32,000 bases of DNA from a cyanobacterium endosymbiont of Epithemia turgida isolate EtSB Lake Yunoko. Lineage in GTDB: Bacteria > Cyanobacteriota > Cyanobacteriia > Cyanobacteriales > Microcystaceae. Shown here in pieces: positions 7,608 to 30,067 of this stretch (position 1 is its first letter; each line of letters starts with the position of its first letter). Under the pieces are notes generated by a model. It was not told where the DNA came from and did not search any database. It saw only the letters and a program-made list of their open reading frames with translations. Location: positions 1,950,001 through 1,982,000 of the forward strand of contig NZ_AP012549.1 of assembly GCF_000829235.1 (NCBI RefSeq). The letters run 5' to 3'. The position numbers and the translations under genes were made by a program.

Positions 7608-8147
7608 CTAAGAGGAAGTTATCATGGAAGATGAGGAAGTTCCTTTATCAGAAGTGTTATGATTGTCCTCTTGCCAATGGGTTTCTGAGTGGGTTTTTTG
7701 TTCCTGAAATTGTTCTAGAGTGGCCACAAAATCTTTAATGCCTTGAAAGCGACCATAAACAGATGCAAAACGAATATATGCTACTTCATTTTCTTGACGA
7801 AGGTAATCTAACACTAATTGGCCAACTTCTTGGCTAGTTACTTCCCGTCGAGGATGCTGCTGCAATTGAGCCTCGATTTCATCAACAATCGATTCTAGTC
7901 TCTGATGGGAGATTCCTGTTTTCTCACAAGCCCGGATAATCGCTCGCAACAATTTAGAACGATCAAAGGATTCTTTTTTCCCGTCGTGTTTGACAACAAT
8001 GATGGGAAAAAACTCTACTCTTTCATAAGTTGTAAAACGATGTTTGCAACCTAAACACTCACGACGACGACGAATACTTTGTCCCCCTTCAGAGGAGCGA
8101 GACTCTAAAACACGACTATTGATGTGTTGACAGTATGGACATTGCAT
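7608..8147 (-). CDS. nrdR: Transcriptional repressor NrdR (zinc ribbon + ATP-cone)
   Basis: 179 aa. The canonical N-terminus is [45 protein letters not shown], followed by an ATP-cone region. Confidence 0.95.
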
Positions 8148-8335
8148 GGAACTGTCCGTAATAACGGATATTGAATTAACAATAAGCTAGCCAACAGTAC
8201 AGTAAAAAATGAACAATCTAAGCAGAACTAGCAACTAGCTATGCTGATATATCTATTCTCTCTAGAAGGGAAAAAACATAGGAGATTGGGGGTATATTAA
8301 CAGCAGTTGATTCTAGTAGAATAGATAGTCGAAAT

Positions 8336-8429
8336 TTATGTTTCAATACGAGGGATTGACCGAAAGGCGATATCGAAAAACAATACAACTAAAGCCATAC
8401 CAAGAAACATAATAAGCAGCGCTTTCCAT
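8336..8429 (-). pseudogene. psbT: psbT (photosystem II reaction centre protein T) remnant with a 1-nt frameshift
   Basis: The minus strand reads ATG GAA AGC GCT GCT TAT = MESAAY. After a +1 shift it reads IMFLGMALVVLFFDIAFRSIPRIET*. From memory, the PsbT consensus is MESVAYIL..L..GVLFFAIAFREPPRIE. The length is 94 nt (3n+1). It lies 111 nt downstream of the psbB remnant, which is the usual psbB-psbT arrangement. Confidence 0.8.
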
Positions 8430-8540
8430 TTGATTGATTTCCTAAAATTGCTTGCGTTCCCAGTGTATCAAAAAAGTTGATAATTTTTTAATGTTTAGCG
8501 ATTATAGGGATAATTAAACTTGACTTTTTAAGATAAAATA

Positions 8541-9889
8541 TTAAGTACTTTCTTTTGTAGTTCTTATACTGGGGTTACCCGCTTTATAAAATAACCCTTA
8601 TCCTCCTTATTCTACGAAATCAGTATCGATTCCCGCAAAAACAACGTCTCGGAAAATAATCTACGAGAACCATACCAGATGTGACGAAAGAAGGATGGAC
8701 CGACAAAGACTGTATGGGTAAAGGCAAATCAACCCGATGGTTAAAAAAAATATCGGAACTGAGAGCTTTGCTGACAAGTTATGTCACTTAAGTGAAGTTG
8801 ATGAAGCTCTCTAATGCACCACTCTAGAAAGTAGTTATTTAGTCAGTTGTCGAATATTTAGCTTCGATTGATTCTACACAGCGGAAGGGAATGTCAGCAC
8901 AGACAATTCCTTCCGCTGTGTAAGAACAATTGGAAAGATTCCAAAGAAGTTAGATATCCGACAAACGGTTAATTCACGACCTTCTTTGTCGGTGAATGCG
9001 GGGTGTCCGAGCCAAGCTTGAGCAATTTCATCTCCACTATCCATAGCCCCATCATCAAATAAACTTTTTTTAGCCAAATTGTTCCTAATTTAATTATCAA
9101 ACACTATTTTTTGGATATTTTTGATTTAGCTTTTTTTAGGCTATCTCCAATCGCTAGGTTGAATTCGACACTAAGATAAATTTCCTATTGAGAAACAACG
9201 CTTATCTCATTGATGACGGGTAAGTCCAAAAAATTCAATTTTGGATAGTTCCCTTTATGATGAAGATAGCGAAGAAAATAGCGGTAATACTTCTAGAAAG
9301 GACTACTTAAGTTCTTCTTGGTTGAAAACAGTTAAAGTTCGCAAGACCTCATTCCAGGACGATACGTTGGGCATGGCCAGTCAATCTATAAGGGTAGAAT
9401 ATCTACATCCCAAGACCTTAGGGTCTAGTTAAGTACAATGCTACGAAACCAAAGTAAAGTAACCCAGACAAGAACAAGTGAACACTAAACATCTTGAGTA
9501 AGTTTAAGGCAGTGAATTTGCCAATATATTAGATATTAATAAATAATTCAGGTCCTAGAAAACCCAGTGCCAAATAGCAGCTAGACTCGGTAAAGCAGAT
9601 AATCAAAATGTGCACTCACTCCTCCGAAATACCAGAAACCAGAATCTACACTAGGTTCTCCCGTGACATTCCAGTCACCCCAGGAGCCAGCAACGTCTTA
9701 AGGGTCCATGAAGAGAACAACAATCATCTCCTGTCGTCATAGTTAAGTTAAAAACAACATCACCCAGCTCATAAAGAGATATAGAATATGCTTAACCTGT
9801 TACAAGAGCGGTGTTCATAGGGTGAATGGAGACGAGTAGGACTAAACATTCAGAACGACTGTGTGAATTCGATACGAAGATAGTCCCAT
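8541..9889 (-). pseudogene. psbB: psbB (photosystem II CP47 chlorophyll apoprotein) pseudogene with multiple in-frame stops, frameshifts and about 175 nt of net deletion
   Basis: Hand translation of the minus strand gives these fragments, with the PsbB match (recalled) in brackets:
- MGLSSYRIHTVVLNV* [MGLPWYRVHTVVLNDPGRL]
- LLVSIHPMNTALVTG* [LISVHLMHTALVAGW]
- FMDP*DVAGSWGDWNVTGEPSVDSGFWYFGGVSAHF [FMARLGVTQSWGGWSITGE..DPGFWSFEGVALAH]
- [38 protein letters not shown] [[37 protein letters not shown]]
- PSG*FAFTHTVFVGPSFFRHIWYGSRRLF, then RDVVFAGIDTD [PRGWFTFGH...[24 protein letters not shown]]. Confidence 0.92.
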
Positions 9890-10446
9890 TGACTACGCTC
9901 CTCCTATTAAGGATATATCGGCTTCAATGCTTTTTTGTATTAGTTGTCTTGGGTTATTTAATTATTATCAAATCCGTGATCGTTCTTCAAGTAAATGTCT
10001 CCGCTCAAGATTAGGCTAACTTGTATTATTTTGAGAAAGTAAAAATTACCTAAAGAAGGACAATTAAATCATTGTTTAGACTCGATTGTAAATCTAAGAA
10101 GGCTACGAGTTATCTGGAAATTAAGTCTAATGTATCTATTTCAAGGTATCACGCTTCAATTACAAGATATCCATTCTCTTTTGAGCTGATGACTCTATTT
10201 CTTGACAATTATTCTCTCAGATGGAGTATGATTAGATTTTCTATCGTCCTGTACCGACAACAGTAAGTTGGCAGTAGGATAAAAATTTTCTAACAAAAAA
10301 CAACACGACAGCATTGCCTTGTCCACCACTACTTTAGTTTGTAATAGTAATATTGTCACTTTATTTTTCAATAAACTTCAATTAAATTTAAAACATCGAC
10401 ATTATAGTCAAAAGTCTCAAGAGTTGATAGAATTTTTGAAAATTTT

Positions 10447-10487
10447 ATTTTAGTCTTTTGGTTGGCAATGCCAACCAAAAGACTAAA
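10447..10487 (-). terminator. 19-bp perfect stem-loop just downstream of the FAD-oxidoreductase stop. It may be a terminator or an mRNA 3' stabiliser.
   Basis: tttt-agtcttttggttggc-aat-gccaaccaaaagact-aaaa, read directly, starting 8 nt after the stop. There is no canonical trailing U-tract, so its function is uncertain. Confidence 0.4.
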
Positions 10488-10494
10488 AAGCTAA

Positions 10495-12588
10495 TTATCT
10501 ATTCTGATGAGCATCAGATAACAAAGTTTGAGGAAAAGTAGTAGGATTTCCTTTCATTTCAAGTATTTGGCGCAATTCCTGTAACAAAGGTTCATGATTA
10601 GGTAAATTGTCTACAAACTCATAAGGTAAAGTGTTGCGTTCTAAAGCCAAATTGGCTAAGTTTCCAGCAGCTGCTCCTACAGACCATTCAAACCCATGTA
10701 CCCGATAAGCTGCTGCCGCAATATGGCTCGTAGCAATACTTTTTCCAGCCACAATCAAATTATCTATTTTTTGGGGAATCATTGCTCGTAGGGGAATTTG
10801 AGCAGGATGAGATCCTCCGTGAGCAATACGTACGTCTTGACGTTCGCGGTTACTAGGTCTTTCGGGGGGAGAAAACGCCATACAAGGATGAAAATCAATC
10901 ATATAGTTGACAATTCCTACTGAATCGTCATAAACTGTGGCATGAGTGCGCTGAGTGAGTAAATAAGAAGGAATAGTACTAATATTTGCTATTTTTGATT
11001 CTAGCTTGGCAATTGTATCCCGAACATTTTTATACATGGGACGAGGTAAAGTAGTTCGATAAAAATCTTGCCAATAATCTTTTGTAGAAATATCAATTTC
11101 GTTAATGCTAAACCCCTCTTTGTGATCAACAGAGGGTCGCCCAATAATACGCCTTCCTTCCCGGATATAAGGGTATTTAGACAACCCATGGACAGTCCCC
11201 ATAGGTGAATCTAACCCCTTTAAAAATCGATGGTTAGGATGTGGCTTTTTGACTCCATATCCGAGGCGTGAGTCAGTAGTTCCTGCTACCAACCAGTAGT
11301 AAAAACCTTTGGCTAATTCTTCCCCTTTTCTAAGGGTTTCTTGACGTAACCCCCCTTTCCATTCCCCGGGTTGTAGTTGCCCACTGTCTTGTAATTGATT
11401 ATGAGTATAAACTAAGTTATCATAACGAGTCCCAGGGCGATAATCATTACCCCATAACCAATTTTGCATAGATATATCTCCTGGAGTGGGACGGTTAACA
11501 GTCATCTGTCCAGCGCGAATGGGGTTTCCTTTTTCGGGACTCCAAATGCGTCGATAAGTGAAGATTAAATCGAAGTAAGCTAGTTTTCGATTAGAATCGT
11601 AACCGTAATAGGGAGCATACTGCTCATAAAAGTTTGGTTTATATTGAGGTTGGGGTTCCTTAGTATGTTCCATAGCAAAGGTATAGGTAAACCCTTGTGT
11701 GCAATAGGGATCACCTTTCTCGTTAGGGGCTGAAGGGTTAAGATGGGAACGAGGATCTAACCCAACCCTATAGGGAACGTCTGCTAAGGCAACAATTTCT
11801 CCTGTTTCTGTGGCTTCGATGACAAACCAATTAGCTTTTTGGGATGCATTCTGAGATTTAGGAATGAAGCGAACAATCTTTTTAGTTAACCGTTGGGAAT
11901 TTTGATAGCTATAAGCATCATCTATTATAGCGGATAGGGGTTCATGGTTGAGGGGAGGAGTTCCGAGCGCATTTTTGTGTTGAATAGCGATCACTCGTTG
12001 AATTTGTTTTCCATCTTTACTCAATTCTAAGTCTTTAACAACTGTTGCCGGGAGCCATCTGAGGTGTCCTCTTCCTAGGCGTTCAGCTTCTTTTAACTGT
12101 CGGTAAATTATGTTATGTCCATCCTTGGGGAGAAAACAGCTTTCACTTACCCAACAGTCTCCAGGGTTGAGGGTTCCATAACCACTAGTAATCGCGTTTC
12201 GTAGCTGTTGATATCCCTTGGGAAAAAGCTGCAATGATCGCTGTTTTTTGCCTTCATCGAGGGCAGAGTTCCCCTGAGATGATATTTGTCCTCCTACCCA
12301 GTCGGAAATATCTGTCAAACAAACTGTCCGTCCTCCTAATAAGGATTCATAGGCGGTAGCTGCCCCGGCGAGTCCTCCTCCAACAATCAGTAAATCACAG
12401 CTTATGGTTTCATCGGGGTCACGAGGTGATGCGGCGATCGCTGGTACAGTTGATAAAACTGATTGTCCACAGAGAACACTTAAGGATAAAGACACTATAA
12501 TACCCTGTAGTCCTTTATTTTTGCTGTCTTTTTTTTGGTGAAAACATCTTGACCTTAGTGATTGCGTTCGGTTACTTTTCCCCATCAT
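10495..12588 (-). CDS. FAD-dependent oxidoreductase of unknown specificity, with an N-terminal signal or anchor-like segment
   Basis: 697-aa ORF. Dinucleotide-binding motif DLLIVGGGLAGAATAYESLLGGRTVCL. Hydrophobic leader IIVSLSLSVLCGQSVLSTVPAIAASP. A C-terminal GKSIATSHIAAAAYRVHGFEWSVGAAAG segment is typical of the flavoprotein C-terminal FAD contact. Confidence 0.8.
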   Translation of the reverse strand: MMGKSNRTQSLRSRCFHQKKDSKNKGLQGIIVSLSLSVLCGQSVLSTVPAIAASPRDPDETISCDLLIVGGGLAGAATAYESLLGGRTVCLTDISDWVGGQISSQGNSALDEGKKQRSLQLFPKGYQQLRNAITSGYGTLNPGDCWVSESCFLPKDGHNIIYRQLKEAERLGRGHLRWLPATVVKDLELSKDGKQIQRVIAIQHKNALGTPPLNHEPLSAIIDDAYSYQNSQRLTKKIVRFIPKSQNASQKANWFVIEATETGEIVALADVPYRVGLDPRSHLNPSAPNEKGDPYCTQGFTYTFAMEHTKEPQPQYKPNFYEQYAPYYGYDSNRKLAYFDLIFTYRRIWSPEKGNPIRAGQMTVNRPTPGDISMQNWLWGNDYRPGTRYDNLVYTHNQLQDSGQLQPGEWKGGLRQETLRKGEELAKGFYYWLVAGTTDSRLGYGVKKPHPNHRFLKGLDSPMGTVHGLSKYPYIREGRRIIGRPSVDHKEGFSINEIDISTKDYWQDFYRTTLPRPMYKNVRDTIAKLESKIANISTIPSYLLTQRTHATVYDDSVGIVNYMIDFHPCMAFSPPERPSNRERQDVRIAHGGSHPAQIPLRAMIPQKIDNLIVAGKSIATSHIAAAAYRVHGFEWSVGAAAGNLANLALERNTLPYEFVDNLPNHEPLLQELRQILEMKGNPTTFPQTLLSDAHQNR

Positions 12589-19212: not shown

Positions 19213-19476
19213 TTAAATGCTTGAAACAAGTTGTAATATTCTAGGGGGATCTTCTAACTCTCCCATGATGCACCTTACTGGTTTAGAACAAAAACGAATA
19301 AAAGTTAGTCTGGCTGTGATATTATGAGCTTCGGCTTCGTCTGGGTGTTTAGAAATATCAATAACTTTAAGAGTGTAGGGATGTTCCAATTCCTTTTCAA
19401 TCAACCTATGAATAATTTATAAGGTTTGTTTTGTCGTGGCGCTATTTCCCACTATAAAAAGACGTGAAATATATCC
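19213..19476 (-). pseudogene. kaiB: kaiB-family (circadian clock protein KaiB-like) pseudogene with an in-frame TAA and no recognisable start codon
   Basis: Minus-strand translation: GYISRLFIVGNSATTKQTL*IIHRLIEKELEHPYTLKVIDISKHPDEAEAHNITARLTFIRFCSKPVRCIMGELEDPPRILQLVSSI*. The recalled KaiB sequence is [76 protein letters not shown]. The in-frame TAA is at 19417-19419. A 10-bp tandem duplication atatccttat/atatccttaa (19471-19490) sits at the expected start. Confidence 0.75.
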
Positions 19477-19486
19477 TTATATATCC

Positions 19487-19967
19487 TTAATAAATTTTTA
19501 TAGAATCTGTTTTATCTGATACAGAAAAACCTAACTGATGCTGGGACTCTTGGGTGCGATAACAGTCCCAAGACACAATAAAATCATGATTGTCCCACAG
19601 TTGAGGAAATTCGTCTTGATAGGTTTCTAAGGTAATTGGGTTACAAGCTTCCTCTTGCCAGGTTACTGTCTGCCAAGTTAGTTAAGTCAGTAATCCCAAA
19701 TACGGAATTCAATAGGGGTAGATAAAGTTCAGCAAGGGTTTTAACCTTGCCGTCTGTCTTAGAAAACCGACAATTGATGGTAGCTGTATAATCAGGAATT
19801 AAAAAATGAGGAAGTTCAGGTAAGTGTAATAATTCCTGCAAAGCTACACATAAATGAGAGTGCCATTTAACTCACTTTGTGCGATCACAACAATAAACTA
19901 GATCTCCTCCGGGGGTGAAAAGAGCAATGCCTTTAAAAAATTAAATTGGAACCACAGAAGTCATCAT
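19487..19967 (-). pseudogene. Degraded ORF of unknown family (about 160 codons) immediately upstream of the kaiB remnant, with two in-frame stops and one frameshift
   Basis: Minus strand: MMTSVVPI*FFKGIALFTPGGDLVYCCDRTK*VKWHSHLCVALQELLHLPELPHFLIPDYTATINCRFSKTDGKVKTLAELYLP... This is followed after a frame change by EACNPITLETYQDEFPQLWDNHDFIVSWDCYRTQESQHQLGFSVSDKTDSIKIY*. The length is 481 nt (3n+1). Confidence 0.5.
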
Positions 19968-23070: not shown

Positions 23071-23904
23071 GTGATTTCTTCCTTAAATCGTCAAACCCAA
23101 ACCCCCATTTGGCAATGGCAACAATGGGATGGACTCCCCTATTTGACTTGTACCTTGCTCCAAGCTTGGAAACATGGCTTTTTGACCCAACAGTTTTCTC
23201 CCCGTCTTCCTGAAAATTTAACAGAAGTTTTACATCCAAACGCAACAACCTATAGGGTTAAGCAGGTTCATGGCTGTCGGGTGTTGACTGCAACAGAAGT
23301 TAAGAAACAAATAACAACAAAGACTCCAAAAGATACCTTTCCTTCTGCTGACGGATTAATCACTGATGATAAGAATCAAGCTATTTGGGTCGCTAGTGCT
23401 GATTGTACCCCCGTGTTAGTCGGAGACATTAAGACTCACCGAGTAGCAGCTATTCATGCAGGATGGCGAGGCACTGCACAACGTATTGTTCCTGAAGCTA
23501 TTGCCTATTTTCAACATTTTGGAAGTACCTTAGATAATCTCCGCATTGCCATGGGTCCAGCCATCTCAGGAGAAGTTTATCAAGTTTCGGAACAGGTGGC
23601 AGCCGAAGTGGGGTCAAGTCTATTCAAAACAGAAGAAAAAAGCAGTCCCCAGGAAATTTTAGAAGCTTTACGTACTATGTTTGACTCTCCAATTTTACCT
23701 GATCCAAAACCTGGACGGGTACGACTGGATGTACGACGGGTTAACGAATTGCAGTTATACGAATTAGGGATTAAGACAGACCAAATAGCGATAGCCCCCC
23801 ATTGTACCTATCAAGAACCCGATGATTTCTTTTCCTATCGACGCACTAAACAAAAGAAAGTCCAATGGTCAGGAATTGTTTGTGGGGACTACTTGAAACA
23901 ATAA
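23071..23904 (+). CDS. pgeF: YfiH/PgeF family (DUF152, laccase-domain / peptidoglycan editing factor / purine nucleoside phosphorylase) protein. Starts with GTG.
   Basis: 277 aa. Motifs: LPYLTCTLLQAWKHGFLTQQF, KQVHG, ADGLIT, SADCTPVLV, AIHAGWRGTAQRIV, CTYQEPDDFFSYRR. GAGG lies 9 nt upstream. Confidence 0.9.
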   Translation: MISSLNRQTQTPIWQWQQWDGLPYLTCTLLQAWKHGFLTQQFSPRLPENLTEVLHPNATTYRVKQVHGCRVLTATEVKKQITTKTPKDTFPSADGLITDDKNQAIWVASADCTPVLVGDIKTHRVAAIHAGWRGTAQRIVPEAIAYFQHFGSTLDNLRIAMGPAISGEVYQVSEQVAAEVGSSLFKTEEKSSPQEILEALRTMFDSPILPDPKPGRVRLDVRRVNELQLYELGIKTDQIAIAPHCTYQEPDDFFSYRRTKQKKVQWSGIVCGDYLKQ

Positions 23905-23970: not shown

Positions 23971-24979
23971 TTAAACCCCTGTACGACCTAGCGCTAACCC
24001 CGTAGCCAAAATTCCTAAAACCAGAAATGATTGTGCGCTGGATTGATATTTAACATTCTCTTGCAAAGAATCACTTGGAAAATACACATTTTGGAGGGTA
24101 ATTTGAGGAATCACCAATGATAATAACATGAATGCATAAAGATTTTGATGGATATATATTTTAGATAGCCAGCAACCCCGACTTTAAATAAATTAATCAT
24201 AATTACACAAATTAAAGCTACTATATTGATTCTAAACATAACCGGAAGGGAATTTAGCCCTAGCTGACGATCACCCTCGACATTCTTAAAATTATTAACA
24301 ACTGCAATGCCCAAACCTGCAAAACTATAGAACAGGGTTAGGATCACAATTGTCCAATTTAAGTCTCCAAATAAAGCGTGACCGTCCGGCCCACCAAGGT
24401 AAAGCAATGTAACTTGCACCAAGGGCATAATTCCCTAAGCAGCTATTTTGTTTCAATTTGAAAGGAGGGGCTGAGTAGATATAAGAAGCCACAAGTGCGC
24501 CTCCTAGGGTCAAAGAAAACATGGTTTGGAACTCATAAGCTGCCCAGATATCTAAAGCGTATTCTAGTGCTATTAGGGCTAGGCCTAATAGCACTAGAAT
24601 TTGAGTGACTACTTGAGTAACAGAAATTGCTCCTGACGGAATAGGACGATAGGGTTCATTAATAACATCGATTTCACGGTGATAAAAATCATTAAAATCC
24701 TTAGTAGTTTGAGTGTAGTCAGCCATCAATAGTCCTGAAAGCAACATACAAGCGGCTATTTTGAGGACATTTTCGAGCATCCAGACAATACCCTCCTGAT
24801 AAGGCTGCGCCACAGACTATGTTCCAAATCAGGAGAATCCAGGTGATGGGTTTCATCAATTGCAGTCGTAATTTCCAAATTAATGTTTCCCCGGGGTCCG
24901 CCCCTTTCATACCTAGTAGTTGACGGGTATTCTTCTTCTCATCTTCAGGCTGAGATACAGAAAATTCAGACATAAGCAA
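23971..24979 (-). pseudogene. chlG: chlG (chlorophyll a synthase, UbiA prenyltransferase family) pseudogene: near full length with at least 3 frameshifts and a damaged Asp-rich motif
   Basis: Four consecutive frame segments match ChlG in order:
- TRQLLGMKGADPGETLIWKLRLQLMKPITWILLIWNIVCGAALSGGY
- LKIAACMLLSGLLMADYTQTTKDFNDFYHREIDVINEPYRPIPSGAISV...YIYSAPPFKLKQNSCLGNYALGASYIALPWWAG
- GHALFGDLNWTIVILTLFYSFAGLGIAVVNNFKNVEGDRQLGLNSLPVMF...AGYL
- LLSLVIPQITLQNVYFPSDSLQENVKYQSSAQSFLVLGILATGLALGRTGV*
The first catalytic motif is recalled as NDFYDRDIDAINEP. Here it reads KDFNDFYHREIDVINEP. The likely original ATG is at 24973. Confidence 0.92.
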
Positions 24980-25060
24980 TTATGAATCAATACAATAGCA
25001 TTCTAATGATGAATTCCTAAGAAACTGAATCAAGAGCGTATTTGGAATACACCCCTGGAA

Positions 25061-26158
25061 TTAGAAAGAAATAATTAAATAGTGATTTTGGAATTTTGCA
25101 CCTCTAACAGGTTGTCTCCGTAAAGGCACAGGTAGCTCAATATTTCGCCGTTGATCTCCTGCTTCAATAGTAATTTCTGGACCATATTGAGTTAATTTAA
25201 TTTGATTTTTATCGAATCCTGGCAAAAACACCCGAACTTCTCTAGAAACTGCATCGACTGTAATAGGTTGTGGGGGCATAGAATCAGCGAGAAAATCTGG
25301 TAAAGCATCTTGTAGGGATTGCCAATCTGTTCCCGTCGGTTGGGAAATAACTGTTACTGATAAAGGAGAAAATTCCTGGGACAGAGAATCAATAAGTTTA
25401 CCTTTATGAACCAAAACCCCTTTAACTATTAACCCCACCTGTTGAGCACAACCCCAGTAATATTTAGTCTGAGCAATCGCCAATTCGTCATCAGTGGTCA
25501 CTAAATAGGTTGCCACATGTTTAGGATCAGCCAAAGCATTTTTCCATTTCCCTAAAATATCATTGGCGTGATTAGTAGGTTCAGTAGCAGGATCATTAGG
25601 CGTCCAAGAGACATTTAAGATGGCACTAATGATGGGTTGAATAAAGGGGGAAAGTGTTTTGCCAACATCTGATTCTTTCAATACCTGACCAAATCGCCGC
25701 AGATACCAACTGAGGATTTCTGGAATTCCAAACATCCGTATGGTACTTAAAGGACTGTCACCGTCGTAGACAATAACATCGTACTTGCAGCTTTGGTAAT
25801 ATTCCCATAAAGCGTTGAGGAACAAGGCTCTATCTATCCCTGGCAAAATACCCAATTCTTGACCATAGATATTTTGCAAAGTCGGCGACCGCAAATATTG
25901 GGATTCTAATTCTTTAACTTTTTCCCATCCTTTCTCTAACAGAAAAGTTGAGGATAACTTAACTGCCATTAAATTAGGCGACACTTCTGTTGGGAAAGTA
26001 TTCACAGGGGTTTCAAGTAAAGTGCTCAAAGTCGGTCCAGGGTTTTGTCCCACCAAGAGAACTCGTAACCCTAAATTGGATAGTTTTTGGGCAGTTGCGA
26101 TCGACACTAAACTTTGATGACTATCGCCTTTACCTAAAAAAGTCAAAATCAAAGTCAT
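25061..26158 (-). CDS. ArsA/Get3-family ATPase-like protein with a C-terminal HSP20/CS-like domain and a strongly degenerate P-loop
   Basis: 365 aa. N-terminus: MTLILTFLGKGDSHQSLVSIATAQKLSNLGLRVLLVGQNPGP. Family members carry GKGG-x-G(K/R)TT at this position. Also DVIVYDGDSPLSTIRMFGIPEILSWYLRRF, and a C-terminal beta-sandwich-like VRVFLPGFDKNQIKLTQYGPEITIEAGDQRRNIELP. Confidence 0.75.
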   Translation of the reverse strand: MTLILTFLGKGDSHQSLVSIATAQKLSNLGLRVLLVGQNPGPTLSTLLETPVNTFPTEVSPNLMAVKLSSTFLLEKGWEKVKELESQYLRSPTLQNIYGQELGILPGIDRALFLNALWEYYQSCKYDVIVYDGDSPLSTIRMFGIPEILSWYLRRFGQVLKESDVGKTLSPFIQPIISAILNVSWTPNDPATEPTNHANDILGKWKNALADPKHVATYLVTTDDELAIAQTKYYWGCAQQVGLIVKGVLVHKGKLIDSLSQEFSPLSVTVISQPTGTDWQSLQDALPDFLADSMPPQPITVDAVSREVRVFLPGFDKNQIKLTQYGPEITIEAGDQRRNIELPVPLRRQPVRGAKFQNHYLIISF

Positions 26159-26184
26159 GGGAACTCCTAATTAATCTTCATTGG

Positions 26185-26379
26185 CTATTCAACTGGCTTT
26201 AGTTCATCTTCAAAAAACCAAACCGCAGTTTTATCTGCAAACTGAACAATTGCCCCAATGCCGCTCCCATCAGTCATTTTAAAGTTCTTAACGGTTCCTT
26301 GTTGACCTAGTTTATTGAAAATATCTTTGGATACTCGATCTTGAAGACGGTAAATTTGAACTTTCTGTCCGATTTTCAT
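26185..26379 (-). CDS. Small SH3-like protein, DUF2862 / cytochrome b6f-associated PetP-like
   Basis: 64 aa: MKIGQKVQIYRLQDRVSKDIFNKLGQQGTVKNFKMTDGSGIGAIVQFADKTAVWFFEDELKPVE. The pattern (GxKVxVxRLRDRV...KxTDGxGxGxxVxFxD...WFFExEL) matches my recollection of the cyanobacterial PetP family. This assignment needs HMM confirmation. Confidence 0.55.
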   Translation of the reverse strand: MKIGQKVQIYRLQDRVSKDIFNKLGQQGTVKNFKMTDGSGIGAIVQFADKTAVWFFEDELKPVE

Positions 26380-26502
26380 GTTCTCTTAATTTCAATCAAA
26401 GTAATGAAACACTCCTTAGTGTAGCCGAATACGGACCTATGTTCATCCTAAAAAATCAGTTAGAATCTAGGCGTCTACCAATAAACGACTCGACAAAGGT
26501 GC

Positions 26503-26531
26503 TTGACATTGAATACAATACCCCTTTAAAT
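26503..26531 (+). promoter_or_regulatory. Candidate sigma70-type promoter of the ABC-2 exporter operon
   Basis: TTGACA (26503-26508), a 17-nt spacer, then TTAAAT (26526-26531), 27 nt upstream of the permease ATG. AT-rich context makes chance matches likely. Confidence 0.4.
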
Positions 26532-26557
26532 CATGATTCATCATTTCGATTCCCATT

Positions 26558-27364
26558 ATGAGCTTATCGGCACAAGTTGGCCCGAAATGGTCGCCTTTAA
26601 GGCGATATCTAGAGCTTCTCCATATTTTGGTTGAACGCAATTTAAAAGGACGTTATCGAGGTTCGTTTTTAGGAGTCTATTGGTCTTTGCTCAACCCCTT
26701 GATCATGACAGGTCTTTATGCCGCAATTTTTGGAACTGCTTTTGCCAGATACTATAACAATAGTACCTTAAACTATATTCTGGCAGCGTTTACAGGGCTG
26801 ATTGTGATTAACTTTTTCTCGGCAGCTACCAATCAGGCTCTAGGCAGTGTGGTCGGAAATGGTCCTTTACTTAATAAAATCAAAATCCCTGTTTCTATTT
26901 TTCCTATTTCAATGATTGTGGCTAATACCTTTCAATTTGTGATGGGTCCATTACCTTTATTAGCAATAGTCACTTTAATAATTAATAGAAACCCTGTTAG
27001 TGTCGTGGCGTTAGTATTTCCCCTAATTGCTTTAAGTCTGGTTTGTACAGGGGTCGGACTGTTAGTAAGTGCTCTATTTGTGTTCTTTCGAGATCTGCCT
27101 TATTTTTATGAGTTGATTTGTTTTGTACTTTGGATCAGCTCGCCCGTATTCTATCCGGCCGAAATCGTTCCCGCTAAGGTCAAATCCTTTTTACTACTAA
27201 ATCCCTTAATTCCTATTATTGAAAGTATTCGTCAAATTTCCTTATCAGGGACTTTGCCTGATTTGATGTTAATTGGGCATTCATTTCTCAATGGAATTAT
27301 CCTTTTAATGCTAGGGTGGACTTGTTTTCGCGCCTGGCAAAACCAATTTATGGACTTGCTCTAG
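26558..27364 (+). CDS. ABC-2 type polysaccharide/O-antigen/teichoic-acid export permease (Wzm/KpsM/TagG-like)
   Basis: 268 aa with 6 predicted TM helices. N-terminal signature: ELLHILVERNLKGRYRGSFLGVYWSLLNPL. It is followed directly by the cognate ATPase. Confidence 0.9.
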   Translation: MSLSAQVGPKWSPLRRYLELLHILVERNLKGRYRGSFLGVYWSLLNPLIMTGLYAAIFGTAFARYYNNSTLNYILAAFTGLIVINFFSAATNQALGSVVGNGPLLNKIKIPVSIFPISMIVANTFQFVMGPLPLLAIVTLIINRNPVSVVALVFPLIALSLVCTGVGLLVSALFVFFRDLPYFYELICFVLWISSPVFYPAEIVPAKVKSFLLLNPLIPIIESIRQISLSGTLPDLMLIGHSFLNGIILLMLGWTCFRAWQNQFMDLL

Positions 27365-27371
27365 AAGTTAC

Positions 27372-28142
27372 ATGACGGAAGTAATTAGACTCGATCAAGT
27401 TTCTTTATCCCGCAGAACCCAAGAGGAGTTCTCTTATGACTTGAAGAAAACTATTCTTTCTTTCTTAGAAGGTAAGTATCGCCAACCCTCAAGAAAGTTG
27501 ATTCTCGACCAAATTAGCTTAACAGTGAAAGTGGGAGAAAAAGTTGGCATTATTGGAGCTAATGGCTCAGGAAAATCCACCCTGCTCAAAGTTCTCTGTG
27601 GTATTTTGCAGCCATCTACAGGGCAGGTCAGAGTTAAGGGAGAAATTGCTCCCTTAATTGAGTTAGGAGCAGGCTTTGATGCCGAATTATCTGTAACTGA
27701 CAATATCATTCTTTATGGAGTCATGTTAGGATTTTCTCGCCAAGATATGAAGAAGCGGGTCGCAGACATTTTAAACTTTGCTGAGTTAGAGGAATATGCA
27801 TGGGCTCCTGTCAAAGCCCTTTCGTCGGGGATGACAGCTCGCTTGGGGTTTGCCATTGCCACTGATATTGAACCCGATGTGTTAATCCTTGATGAAGTCC
27901 TTTCAGTAGGAGATGAAAGTTTTAAGCACAAATGTCAAAGACGGATGGATAAATTATGGGGCCATCACACTACTATTTTAGTGGTTTCTCATGGATTGGA
28001 GTTTATTCAACAGTCTTGTGATCGCGCCATTTGGTTAGATCGCGGTAAAATTCGCTTTGCGGGTAACACCGATGAGACAATTGATTGTTATCTAACGTCA
28101 GTTCAACAAAATCAAGAGATAGGATTACATCAACAGCTATGA
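27372..28142 (+). CDS. ABC transporter ATP-binding protein of polysaccharide exporters (Wzt/KpsT/TagH-like, short form without a C-terminal glycan-binding domain)
   Basis: 256 aa. Walker A GANGSGKST, Q-loop, signature LSSGMTARLGFA, Walker B VLILDEVLSVGD, H-loop VVSHG. Confidence 0.93.
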   Translation: MTEVIRLDQVSLSRRTQEEFSYDLKKTILSFLEGKYRQPSRKLILDQISLTVKVGEKVGIIGANGSGKSTLLKVLCGILQPSTGQVRVKGEIAPLIELGAGFDAELSVTDNIILYGVMLGFSRQDMKKRVADILNFAELEEYAWAPVKALSSGMTARLGFAIATDIEPDVLILDEVLSVGDESFKHKCQRRMDKLWGHHTTILVVSHGLEFIQQSCDRAIWLDRGKIRFAGNTDETIDCYLTSVQQNQEIGLHQQL

Positions 28143-29071
28143 AAATATTAATCACTGGAGGCGCGGGTTATATTGGGTCGGTTCTGACCCCAACTCTATT
28201 GGCAAAAGGCTATGAAGTGACAGTTTTAGACAATTTTATGTTCCGGCAAAATAGTCTGGCTGATTGTTGTCAATATGATACATTTAATATAGTTCGTGGC
28301 GATTGTCGTGATGAATCTACTATCAAGGAGTTGCTTCATGACACGGATGTTATCATCCCTTTAGCTGCCTTAGTAGGTGCGCCTCTGTGTGGTAGAGATC
28401 AGATAGGAACCCAAACCATTAATTATGAGGCAGTTAAACTAATCTGTGATTTAGCAAGTCCGGAACAACGTATTTTGATGCCTGTTACTAATAGCGGTTA
28501 CGGTATTGGGACATCAGGCAAGTATTGTACTGAAGAATCTCCTTTGCGTCCTATTTCTCTCTATGGCAGCACCAAAGTAAATGCAGAAAGGACAGTTTTA
28601 GAGAGGGGAAATAGTATCACTTTTCGTTTAGCTACAGTATTTGGGATGTCTCCTCGAATGCGGGTAGATCTCTTAGTCAATGATTTTGTTTACCGTGCTT
28701 TTTATGATCGTGCTGTGGTCATTTTTGAAGGGCATTTTAAGCGAAATTATATCCATATTCGGGATGTTGCTAAGGTGTTTGTCCATGGGATCGAAAATTT
28801 TGAGTCGATGAAGGATAAATCCTATAATGTAGGACTTGATGATGCTAACTTATCAAAATTAGAGTTGTGCGCAGAAATTCAAAAGTATCTGCCTAAATTT
28901 GTTTATTCAGAAGCCCCTATTGGGGAAGACCCTGACAAAAGAGATTATATCGTTTCTAATGCTCGAATTCTTAATACGGGGTTTGAAACAGATTGGTCTT
29001 TAGGACGCGGGATTAAAGAGTTAATTAAAGGTTATACAATTTTGCGGAACACTCTTTATTCTAACGTTTAA
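28139..29071 (+). CDS. NAD-dependent sugar epimerase/dehydratase (extended SDR)
   Basis: I take the start at MKILITGGAGYIGS. Its ATG (28139) overlaps the ATPase TGA (28140-28142) as ATGA. Catalytic SLYGSTKVNAE (YxxxK). 310 aa. Confidence 0.9.
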   Translation: MKILITGGAGYIGSVLTPTLLAKGYEVTVLDNFMFRQNSLADCCQYDTFNIVRGDCRDESTIKELLHDTDVIIPLAALVGAPLCGRDQIGTQTINYEAVKLICDLASPEQRILMPVTNSGYGIGTSGKYCTEESPLRPISLYGSTKVNAERTVLERGNSITFRLATVFGMSPRMRVDLLVNDFVYRAFYDRAVVIFEGHFKRNYIHIRDVAKVFVHGIENFESMKDKSYNVGLDDANLSKLELCAEIQKYLPKFVYSEAPIGEDPDKRDYIVSNARILNTGFETDWSLGRGIKELIKGYTILRNTLYSNV

Positions 29072-29112
29072 AACTTAAGCGGGAGTTGATAATAACTCCC
29101 GCTTAAGTTTTA
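29069..29112 (+). terminator. Terminator of the exporter/epimerase operon: 19-bp perfect stem, 6-nt loop, with the 3' arm ending in UUUUA
   Basis: taaaacttaagcgggagtt-gataat-aactcccgcttaagtttta. The stop codon (29069-29071) lies inside the 5' arm. Confidence 0.6.
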
Positions 29113-29242
29113 AAAAAATCTTCATAGCAAATTCCTTGAATTTATTTTAAGAGAGTATTGAAATTAGAGCCTAATTTTTTTCTACTATTTTTTATCATAG
29201 ATTTTGACTCTTCAATAGACTATAATTGGTATTATTTATTTA

Positions 29243-29287
29243 GAATTTACAGTCTCAAAATTAAGATAACTTTGAGACTGTAAATTC
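29243..29287. repeat. Perfect 17-bp stem / 11-nt loop inverted repeat in an AT-rich desert
   Basis: gaatttacagtctcaaa-attaagataac-tttgagactgtaaattc, read directly. Confidence 0.6.
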
Positions 29288-29838
29288 GCACTAAATCTTT
29301 AATAAATTATCTAATTAACTTGTTTATAATCTGATTTTATAGTCTTTTGTGAATATATTTATTAACATAAATAATAGATTGTTTGTAGATAGTAAAATTT
29401 TTGTTGATTGAACATTTTTATAAAAATAATTAACTTACTATATAAGTATTGCTAAAACTATTTTCAGAAGTAAACTAATGTTATTTGTCTTTTATGAAGA
29501 AACTATTTTGTCTAAAAAAATAACTATGTTTTTTCATAGTATTGAGAGTCTTCATTTAAGATTTTATATAAAACTTATTGGTGATCTTTAATTTTTTTTA
29601 TATATTGAATAATTTTCATATATTTTTAATAAAAAGTGTGAGCGTATCAAGAGATATTTATAAGTTATTAAATAGTAATATTTTAGTATTTAGTTTAAAT
29701 TTTAAGTTGTTGATATAGTAAACTAGAAATCCTTATTTATTTAAAATTGCTCATCATTTAATGGAAAAGTTAATACGAAAGTCATCGTTATGGTCTATTG
29801 ACATAAGTCAATAAAAATAAAACGGTTTATATTAATTA

Positions 29839-29884
29839 ATAACCCCAAAAATATTAATAATATTATTAATATTTTTGGGGTTAT
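29839..29884. repeat. Perfect 46-bp spacerless palindrome (23-bp arms) in an AT-rich desert
   Basis: ataaccccaaaaatattaataat|attattaatatttttggggttat. Every position was checked pairwise. Confidence 0.6.
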
Positions 29885-30067
29885 AATATGTTCATATTTC
29901 AAAACTAATAGTAGTCGAGTCGATTTGAGACTTTAATTTTAGCTATAAAATATTAGTATTAATTCTGATTTGATTGGGAATCGGAATTATTTTCGGTCTC
30001 TAATAGGGTCGACGTAAGAAATGAATACCCCTATCATCTATAGTTGAGCCCCAACATTTAGACTCAT

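Follow-up and report, generated by a model that had tools for sequence, protein, structure and literature searches.

The chlorophyll synthase gene chlG of the spheroid body of Epithemia turgida (EtSB) is, with a probability that we put at about 0.96, a non-functional pseudogene in a nitrogen-fixing endosymbiont that has lost photosynthesis, and its decay is best explained by relaxed selection. None of the data contradicts this reading. The analysis covered a window of 32,000 nucleotides (positions 1,950,001 to 1,982,000 of contig NZ_AP012549.1), which spans ETSB_1340 to ETSB_1363 of AP012549 and whose proteins on the EtSB chromosome include, by exact protein identity, BAP18091, BAP18100, BAP18106 and BAP18108. 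The chlG remnant is preserved at full length at 23971-24973 on the minus strand, between ETSB_1358 and ETSB_1356. The locus is organised as follows, in window positions:

23971-24973, minus strand: whole chlG pseudogene, from the ancestral ATG at 24973 to the ancestral TAA at 23971-23973
24789-24973, minus strand: segment 1, ChlG residues 1-62, from profile search and alignment
23971-24160, minus strand: segment 4, ChlG C-terminus (about residues 264-326), ending at the ancestral stop, from profile search and alignment
25061-26158, minus strand: upstream neighbour, intact, Get3/ArsA-family ATPase (BAP18106, ETSB_1358), used as synteny anchor
23071-23904, plus strand: downstream neighbour, intact, Cu-oxidase_4 family protein (ETSB_1356)

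The remnant measures 1003 nt versus 981 nt for intact orthologues, with which it has its stop codon in common. Its true start is the ATG at 24973, position 24979 being merely the first TTG of a mechanical open reading frame. We aligned it at the nucleotide level with five intact orthologues, from the endosymbionts of Epithemia clementina (EcSB), Rhopalodia gibberula (RgSB) and E. pelagica (uoEpiScrs1, EpSB) and from the free-living Cyanothece sp. UBA12306 and Crocosphaera watsonii. Relative to these, EtSB chlG has exactly six insertions and zero deletions, listed here in the direction of the gene and compared with the E. adnata endosymbiont (EadnSB):

24788, minus strand: frameshift 1, +1 T (TATTG versus TA-TG), common to EadnSB and also in Logan contig L001
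24694-24702, minus strand: in-frame +9 insertion AAGGATTTT, resembling a near-tandem copy of the following AATGATTTT and adding K-D-F
24576-24578, minus strand: in-frame +3 insertion, from the alignment
24486-24488, minus strand: in-frame +3 insertion, a CTT duplication common to EadnSB
24385-24388, minus strand: frameshift 2, +4 (CGGA), common to EadnSB
24161-24162, minus strand: frameshift 3, +2 (AA, in an A/TA-rich run), common to EadnSB

Most of the six resemble small tandem duplications or run expansions, and their placement inside short repeats is ambiguous by 1-3 nt. The original prediction of at least three frameshifts is thus confirmed by the +1, +4 and +2 seen in the alignment with the five intact orthologues, and the two one-codon insertions (24576-24578 and 24486-24488) come in addition to that account. 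The A-rich site of the third frameshift (CDS position 791) carries +2 in EtSB and EadnSB and +1 A in the endosymbionts of R. yunnanensis and R. sterrenbergii (L085 and L089); this site is apparently a hot spot of recurrent slippage. As all indels of EtSB chlG are insertions (net +22 nt), this is a dead gene without any shrinkage. Bacteria usually show a deletion bias, against which an insertion-only pattern is unusual. Such a mode of decay agrees with reports that spheroid-body genomes are structurally stable and have a low coding density, and the chlG comparison could provide a small data point on the slow erasure of dead genes in these genomes.

With three frameshifting insertions, EtSB chlG has no uninterrupted frame of about 326 codons. 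Indeed, as-is translation from the ATG runs for 84 residues and resembles ChlG only up to residue 62, so that no chlorophyll synthase can be produced and the gene is dead, as had been claimed. We infer that the fragments have no residual role. The decay is nonetheless moderate: the remnant is full length, and when the six insertions are taken out the frame is open as far as the ancestral TAA, with no internal stop.

The four pieces, which overlap as open reading frames, match ChlG end to end on TIGR02056, the NCBIfam ChlG equivalog profile, as the earlier tiling of open reading frames had suggested; they cover profile positions 1-47, 46-178, 173-251 and 259-305 of 306. Taken as they are, they score 69.2, 192.8, 109.5 and 53.2 bits, each below the cut-off of 436.45, and two of the four also match Pfam UbiA (PF01040). 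The repaired translation, with the six insertions removed, reaches 475.6 bits over profile positions 1-305, above the same cut-off; the intact copies of EcSB and RgSB score 578.5 and 545.1 bits, respectively. At the level of sequence, the score of the repaired gene establishes descent from chlG, not current function. An origin from BchG, a bacteriochlorophyll c synthase or another UbiA prenyltransferase was rejected, the repaired translation scoring 475.6 bits with the ChlG model versus 156 with the bacteriochlorophyll c synthase model and 78 with a generic prenyltransferase model. The gene order petP, arsA-like, chlG, Cu-oxidase_4, birA-like is the same in EtSB, RgSB, EcSB and EpSB, the nucleotide identity of the chlG flanks of EtSB to the other three being 82-91%, and the Cu-oxidase_4 gene adjoins chlG at the same position in every endosymbiont genome examined. 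An exact protein look-up returned no called gene for the 105-aa chlG fragment. tRNA and Rfam scans of the whole window gave no match, and hence no RNA gene hidden inside the remnant.

Besides its frameshifts, the remnant has lost two aspartates that are predicted to bind Mg2+:

24679-24681, minus strand: codon CAC, Asp to His, central Asp of NDxxDxxxD, Asp93 in Synechocystis numbering
24291-24293, minus strand: codon AAT, Asp to Asn in VVNNFK, Asp219 in Synechocystis numbering, common to EadnSB

EcSB ChlG aligns with Synechocystis ChlG without a gap over residues 32-324, so that conserved residues can be mapped directly onto the Synechocystis enzyme; residue numbers in the window are those of Synechocystis + 2, a conversion under which the published positions agree exactly with the sequence. 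All catalytic residues checked are kept in EcSB ChlG. In EtSB, the first Asp-rich motif, N89-D90-x-x-D93-x-x-x-D97, reads NDFYHREID and is not intact, and the second metal site combines D219N with a retained D226. The other residues checked are unchanged (Lys39, Ile44, Asn89, Asp90, Asp97, Arg104, Tyr159, Lys167, Tyr181, Lys221, Asp226, Gln301 and Gln305). Both the D-to-H and the D-to-N changes had been predicted and are found in the codons given above. The predicted D-to-E change is not a lesion, since NDFYDREID occurs in all close relatives, including Crocosphaera and the intact endosymbiont copies, and the E of DREID corresponds to Synechocystis Asp95, outside the cited ligands. As for the three-residue insertion placed in the motif, the KDF insertion is real but lies directly before the Asn of N-D-x-x-D-x-x-x-D, not within it.

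In the cryo-EM structures of Synechocystis ChlG (PDB 9sas, 9sau), Asn89, Asp90, Asp93 and Asp97 hold the pyrophosphate of GGPP, presumably via Mg2+ (bioRxiv 10.64898/2026.05.13.724888). An AlphaFold3 model in the same study, as distinct from an experimental density, places two Mg2+ on Asn89, Asp93, Asp219 and Asp226, which makes Asp219 a predicted ligand. Alanine substitutions at predicted substrate-binding or catalytic residues lowered the activity to 1% or less in 14 of 16 cases, and ChlG is essential in Synechocystis (bioRxiv 10.64898/2026.05.13.724888).

We then weighed two ways in which a working enzyme might still exist. Several of the insertions lie in short repeats or A/T runs (TATTG, CTTCTT, CTAAAAT) that are error-prone in some sequencing chemistries, as would be expected if the indels were sequencing or assembly errors in a gene that is truly intact. 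The Logan assembly of an unrelated run, SRR29904087, is however 100% identical across window positions 24391-29868, a stretch that includes four of the six insertions (+1, +9 and both +3). The +4 and +2 lie just beyond this contig and are supported by the sister genome instead of a second EtSB data set. Indeed, EadnSB (CP076462) and a separate Logan contig (SRR25945676) carry the same +1, +3 (CTT), +4, +2 and D219N, that is, four of the six insertions with all three frameshifts among them. Being common to the independently sequenced EadnSB, the frameshifts and D219N are not sequencing errors and are older than the split between the E. turgida and E. adnata endosymbionts. Moreover, indel errors could not explain 31 replacements at near-invariant sites, two metal-ligand aspartates among them. 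The three data sets exclude the artefact on which the original prediction was to be checked, and we regard an intact gene hidden by errors as exceedingly improbable.

It is just as improbable, in our opinion, that a working enzyme is still made from the damaged gene, by programmed ribosomal frameshifting or by assembly of split polypeptides. That each of the four pieces is open in its own frame and that the ancestral start and stop are retained would be compatible with such a rescue. It would nevertheless need three separate shifts of differing size (+1, +4 and +2), at none of which is there a recognisable slippery-site context, and would yield a protein in which both Asp-rich metal sites are damaged (D93H and D219N). 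The raised dN/dS described below, towards neutrality, also argues against it, as does the further decay of the sister copy. The EadnSB-type sequences (CP076462 and SRR25945676) have private lesions, namely two 5-nt duplications, an in-frame TGA and deletions that take out the entire NDFYD motif. Finally, the other nine genes of the pathway, all of them located outside the window, are dead or missing in EtSB according to the literature (PMC5638926 Table S3), which would leave the enzyme without substrate. The interpretation of EtSB chlG as a pseudogene is thus retained.

The substitution pattern bears on when chlG was released from selection. Across 115 cyanobacterial ChlG, 195 alignment columns show a conservation of at least 98%; in these columns the repaired EtSB protein has 31 replacements, compared with 8 in EcSB, 13 in RgSB and 16 in EpSB. 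By pairwise Nei-Gojobori estimates in three-taxon comparisons, which are rough, the dN/dS of chlG amounts to 0.43-0.50 along the EtSB branch and to 0.65-0.87 along the short branches that follow the EtSB/EadnSB split, versus 0.03-0.32 on the same EtSB branch for four intact neighbours (arsA-like, ABC permease, ABC ATPase and DAHP synthase genes) and 0.14-0.35 for chlG in EcSB, RgSB and EpSB. These values would fit a gene that turned neutral part-way along the EtSB branch, well before the EtSB/EadnSB split; if neutrality covered only part of the EtSB branch, a dN/dS below 1 is what one would expect for it. The intact chlG of EcSB, RgSB and EpSB are neither clearly neutral nor constrained like the most conserved neighbouring genes.

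From these data the following order of events can be proposed. The photosystems would have been lost first, leaving chlG unneeded and under relaxed selection. In the common ancestor of EtSB and EadnSB, the gene would then have received slippage-type insertions (+1, +4, +2 and the CTT codon) and lost a metal-binding aspartate (D219N), and the EtSB copy bears D93H and two further in-frame insertions (+9 and +3) as well. The stretches concerned are deleted in EadnSB, including the counterpart of the +9 insertion, and D93H, +9 and +3 therefore cannot be placed before or after the split.

The state of chlG varies among the endosymbionts of related diatoms. Uninterrupted reading frames of 323-326 codons are found in RgSB, EcSB and EpSB, and dead copies at the same syntenic position as in EtSB in the endosymbionts of R. 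gibba, R. yunnanensis, R. sterrenbergii and R. inflata:

L002:10001-10978: intact chlG frame, EcSB
L003:10001-10978: intact chlG frame, RgSB
L030:10001-10969: intact chlG frame, EpSB
L084:3461-4501: chlG pseudogene, R. gibba endosymbiont
L085:2143-4545: chlG pseudogene, R. yunnanensis endosymbiont
L087:4178-4501: chlG pseudogene, R. inflata endosymbiont
L089:3394-4526: chlG pseudogene, R. sterrenbergii endosymbiont

All four copies of the R. gibba group have a 1-nt deletion at CDS position 69 that EtSB does not have. A second 1-nt deletion, at CDS position 139, is found in three of the four, the stretch being deleted in R. inflata, whose chlG has an internal deletion of about 800 nt that spares only ~95 nt at the start of the CDS and ~90 nt at its end. 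Conversely, none of the insertions of EtSB and EadnSB is present in the four R. gibba-group copies when the syntenic intervals are compared. Since the founding lesions differ from those of EtSB and EadnSB, chlG was inactivated independently in the R. gibba group. The losses of the gene thus number two or more and postdate the divergence of the endosymbiont lineages, to all of which photosystem loss is common. The lesions shared with EadnSB and those of the R. gibba group, together with a full-length remnant altered by insertions only, could serve as phylogenetic markers.

What does the death of chlG say about phototrophy? That the cell cannot make chlorophyll was rightly anticipated, as all ten chlorophyll a genes of EtSB are pseudogenes or missing (PMC5638926 Table S3), and no second intact chlG was found among the annotated proteins retrieved or in literature reports. 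The comparative data place EtSB with EaSB and RaSB in a group with little or no chlorophyll pathway; RgSB, EcSB and EpSB have neither PSI nor PSII and retain most of the pathway, with chlP, bciB and por dead (PMC12903740, a comparative paper of 2026). The original prediction also held that chlG death is stronger evidence of non-phototrophy than the loss of PSII alone, and this does not stand. ChlG being essential in Synechocystis, and chlorophyll a impossible without it, one might take its loss as the primary cause or the strongest indicator of non-phototrophy. We consider this very unlikely. RgSB, EcSB and EpSB have no PSI or PSII genes and yet keep intact chlG frames, so that an intact chlG is uninformative on phototrophy. 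Furthermore, the founding lesions of EtSB/EadnSB and of the R. gibba group do not overlap, which implies at least two post-divergence losses; as the lesions differ between the two endosymbiont clades, chlG was lost after the photosystems and separately from them. Photosynthesis would have been lost earlier, with the decay of chlG as a late consequence that adds no independent evidence of that loss; taken by itself, the state of chlG indicates phototrophy poorly in the spheroid-body group.

It is conceivable, although we hold it to be doubtful, that chlG outlived photosynthesis because of a residual non-photosynthetic use of the chlorophyll branch, with which the intact frames, the catalytic residues and the dN/dS of about 0.15-0.35 in EcSB, RgSB and EpSB would agree, and that two or more independent losses followed, in EtSB/EadnSB and in the R. 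gibba group. As an example of such a use, a tetrapyrrole-regulatory role of chlorophyllide or of geranylgeranyl-chlorophyll has been put forward as a speculation (PMC12903740). Nakayama & Inagaki suggested that the intact copies are cryptic pseudogenes. If this were true, the EtSB pseudogene would be one arm of a natural experiment on when the residual role became dispensable.

Other parts of the window also show signs of decay. A second pseudogene lies at 19213-19841 on the minus strand, where two open reading frame fragments (63 and 66 aa) together represent a single KaiB-domain protein; RgSB has this protein intact, with 267 aa (L003:14974-15777). The 63-aa piece matches Pfam KaiB (PF07689, E=1.5e-10). 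A clock-related gene thus appears to be decaying in EtSB, and the remnant may be ETSB_1351, which has a very high dN in the 2017 tables (PMC5638926). Two gene-free tracts (1-2000 and 29072-30067) have a G+C content of about 22-23% versus 36-43% in the coding parts and are probably heavily eroded former genes or spacers; the second aligns weakly (about 70%) with EcSB. Lastly, 2.3 kb at 8148-10494, between an nrdR-like gene (7608-8147) and a gene for an FAD-dependent oxidoreductase (10495-12588), hold no open reading frame of at least 80 aa. As ETSB_1343 and RGRSB_1668 are both absent from the published orthologue table, another pseudogene may lie within this interval.

The EtSB genome is a textbook example of a non-photosynthetic cyanobacterial endosymbiont; its sequence (AP012549) was reportedly described by Nakayama et al. 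in 2014. That its chlG is a pseudogene is already known since 2017 and is rediscovered here. In that account, EtSB chlG is classed as an 'S, F' pseudogene (in-frame stop, frameshift) and RgSB chlG as intact (RGRSB_1655) (PMC5638926 Table S3), and each of the ten genes for chlorophyll a biosynthesis is either dysfunctional or undetected in EtSB (PMC5638926; Nakayama & Inagaki 2017, Sci Rep 7:13075). We add the exact six insertions, D93H, D219N and the lesions common to the E. adnata endosymbiont, a base-level description that was not found in the 2017 account, as well as the second, independent lesion set of the Rhopalodia gibba group.

Compared with known systems, the EtSB remnant belongs to the same fold family as ChlG of Synechocystis sp. 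PCC 6803 (PDB 9sas, 9sau; UbiA superfamily). Unlike the Synechocystis enzyme, the EtSB copy cannot be translated as a full enzyme and is without Asp93 and Asp219. Its closest counterparts are the orthologous and syntenic chlG of RgSB (RGRSB_1655), EcSB/R. musculus endosymbiont and EpSB (uoEpiScrs1), whose proteins are 76-78% (RgSB and EcSB) and 68% (EpSB) identical to the as-is concatenation of the four EtSB pieces. These endosymbionts are non-photosynthetic as EtSB is, but their chlG frame is intact, all the Asp ligands are kept, and the 8-16 changes at near-invariant sites are mostly conservative.
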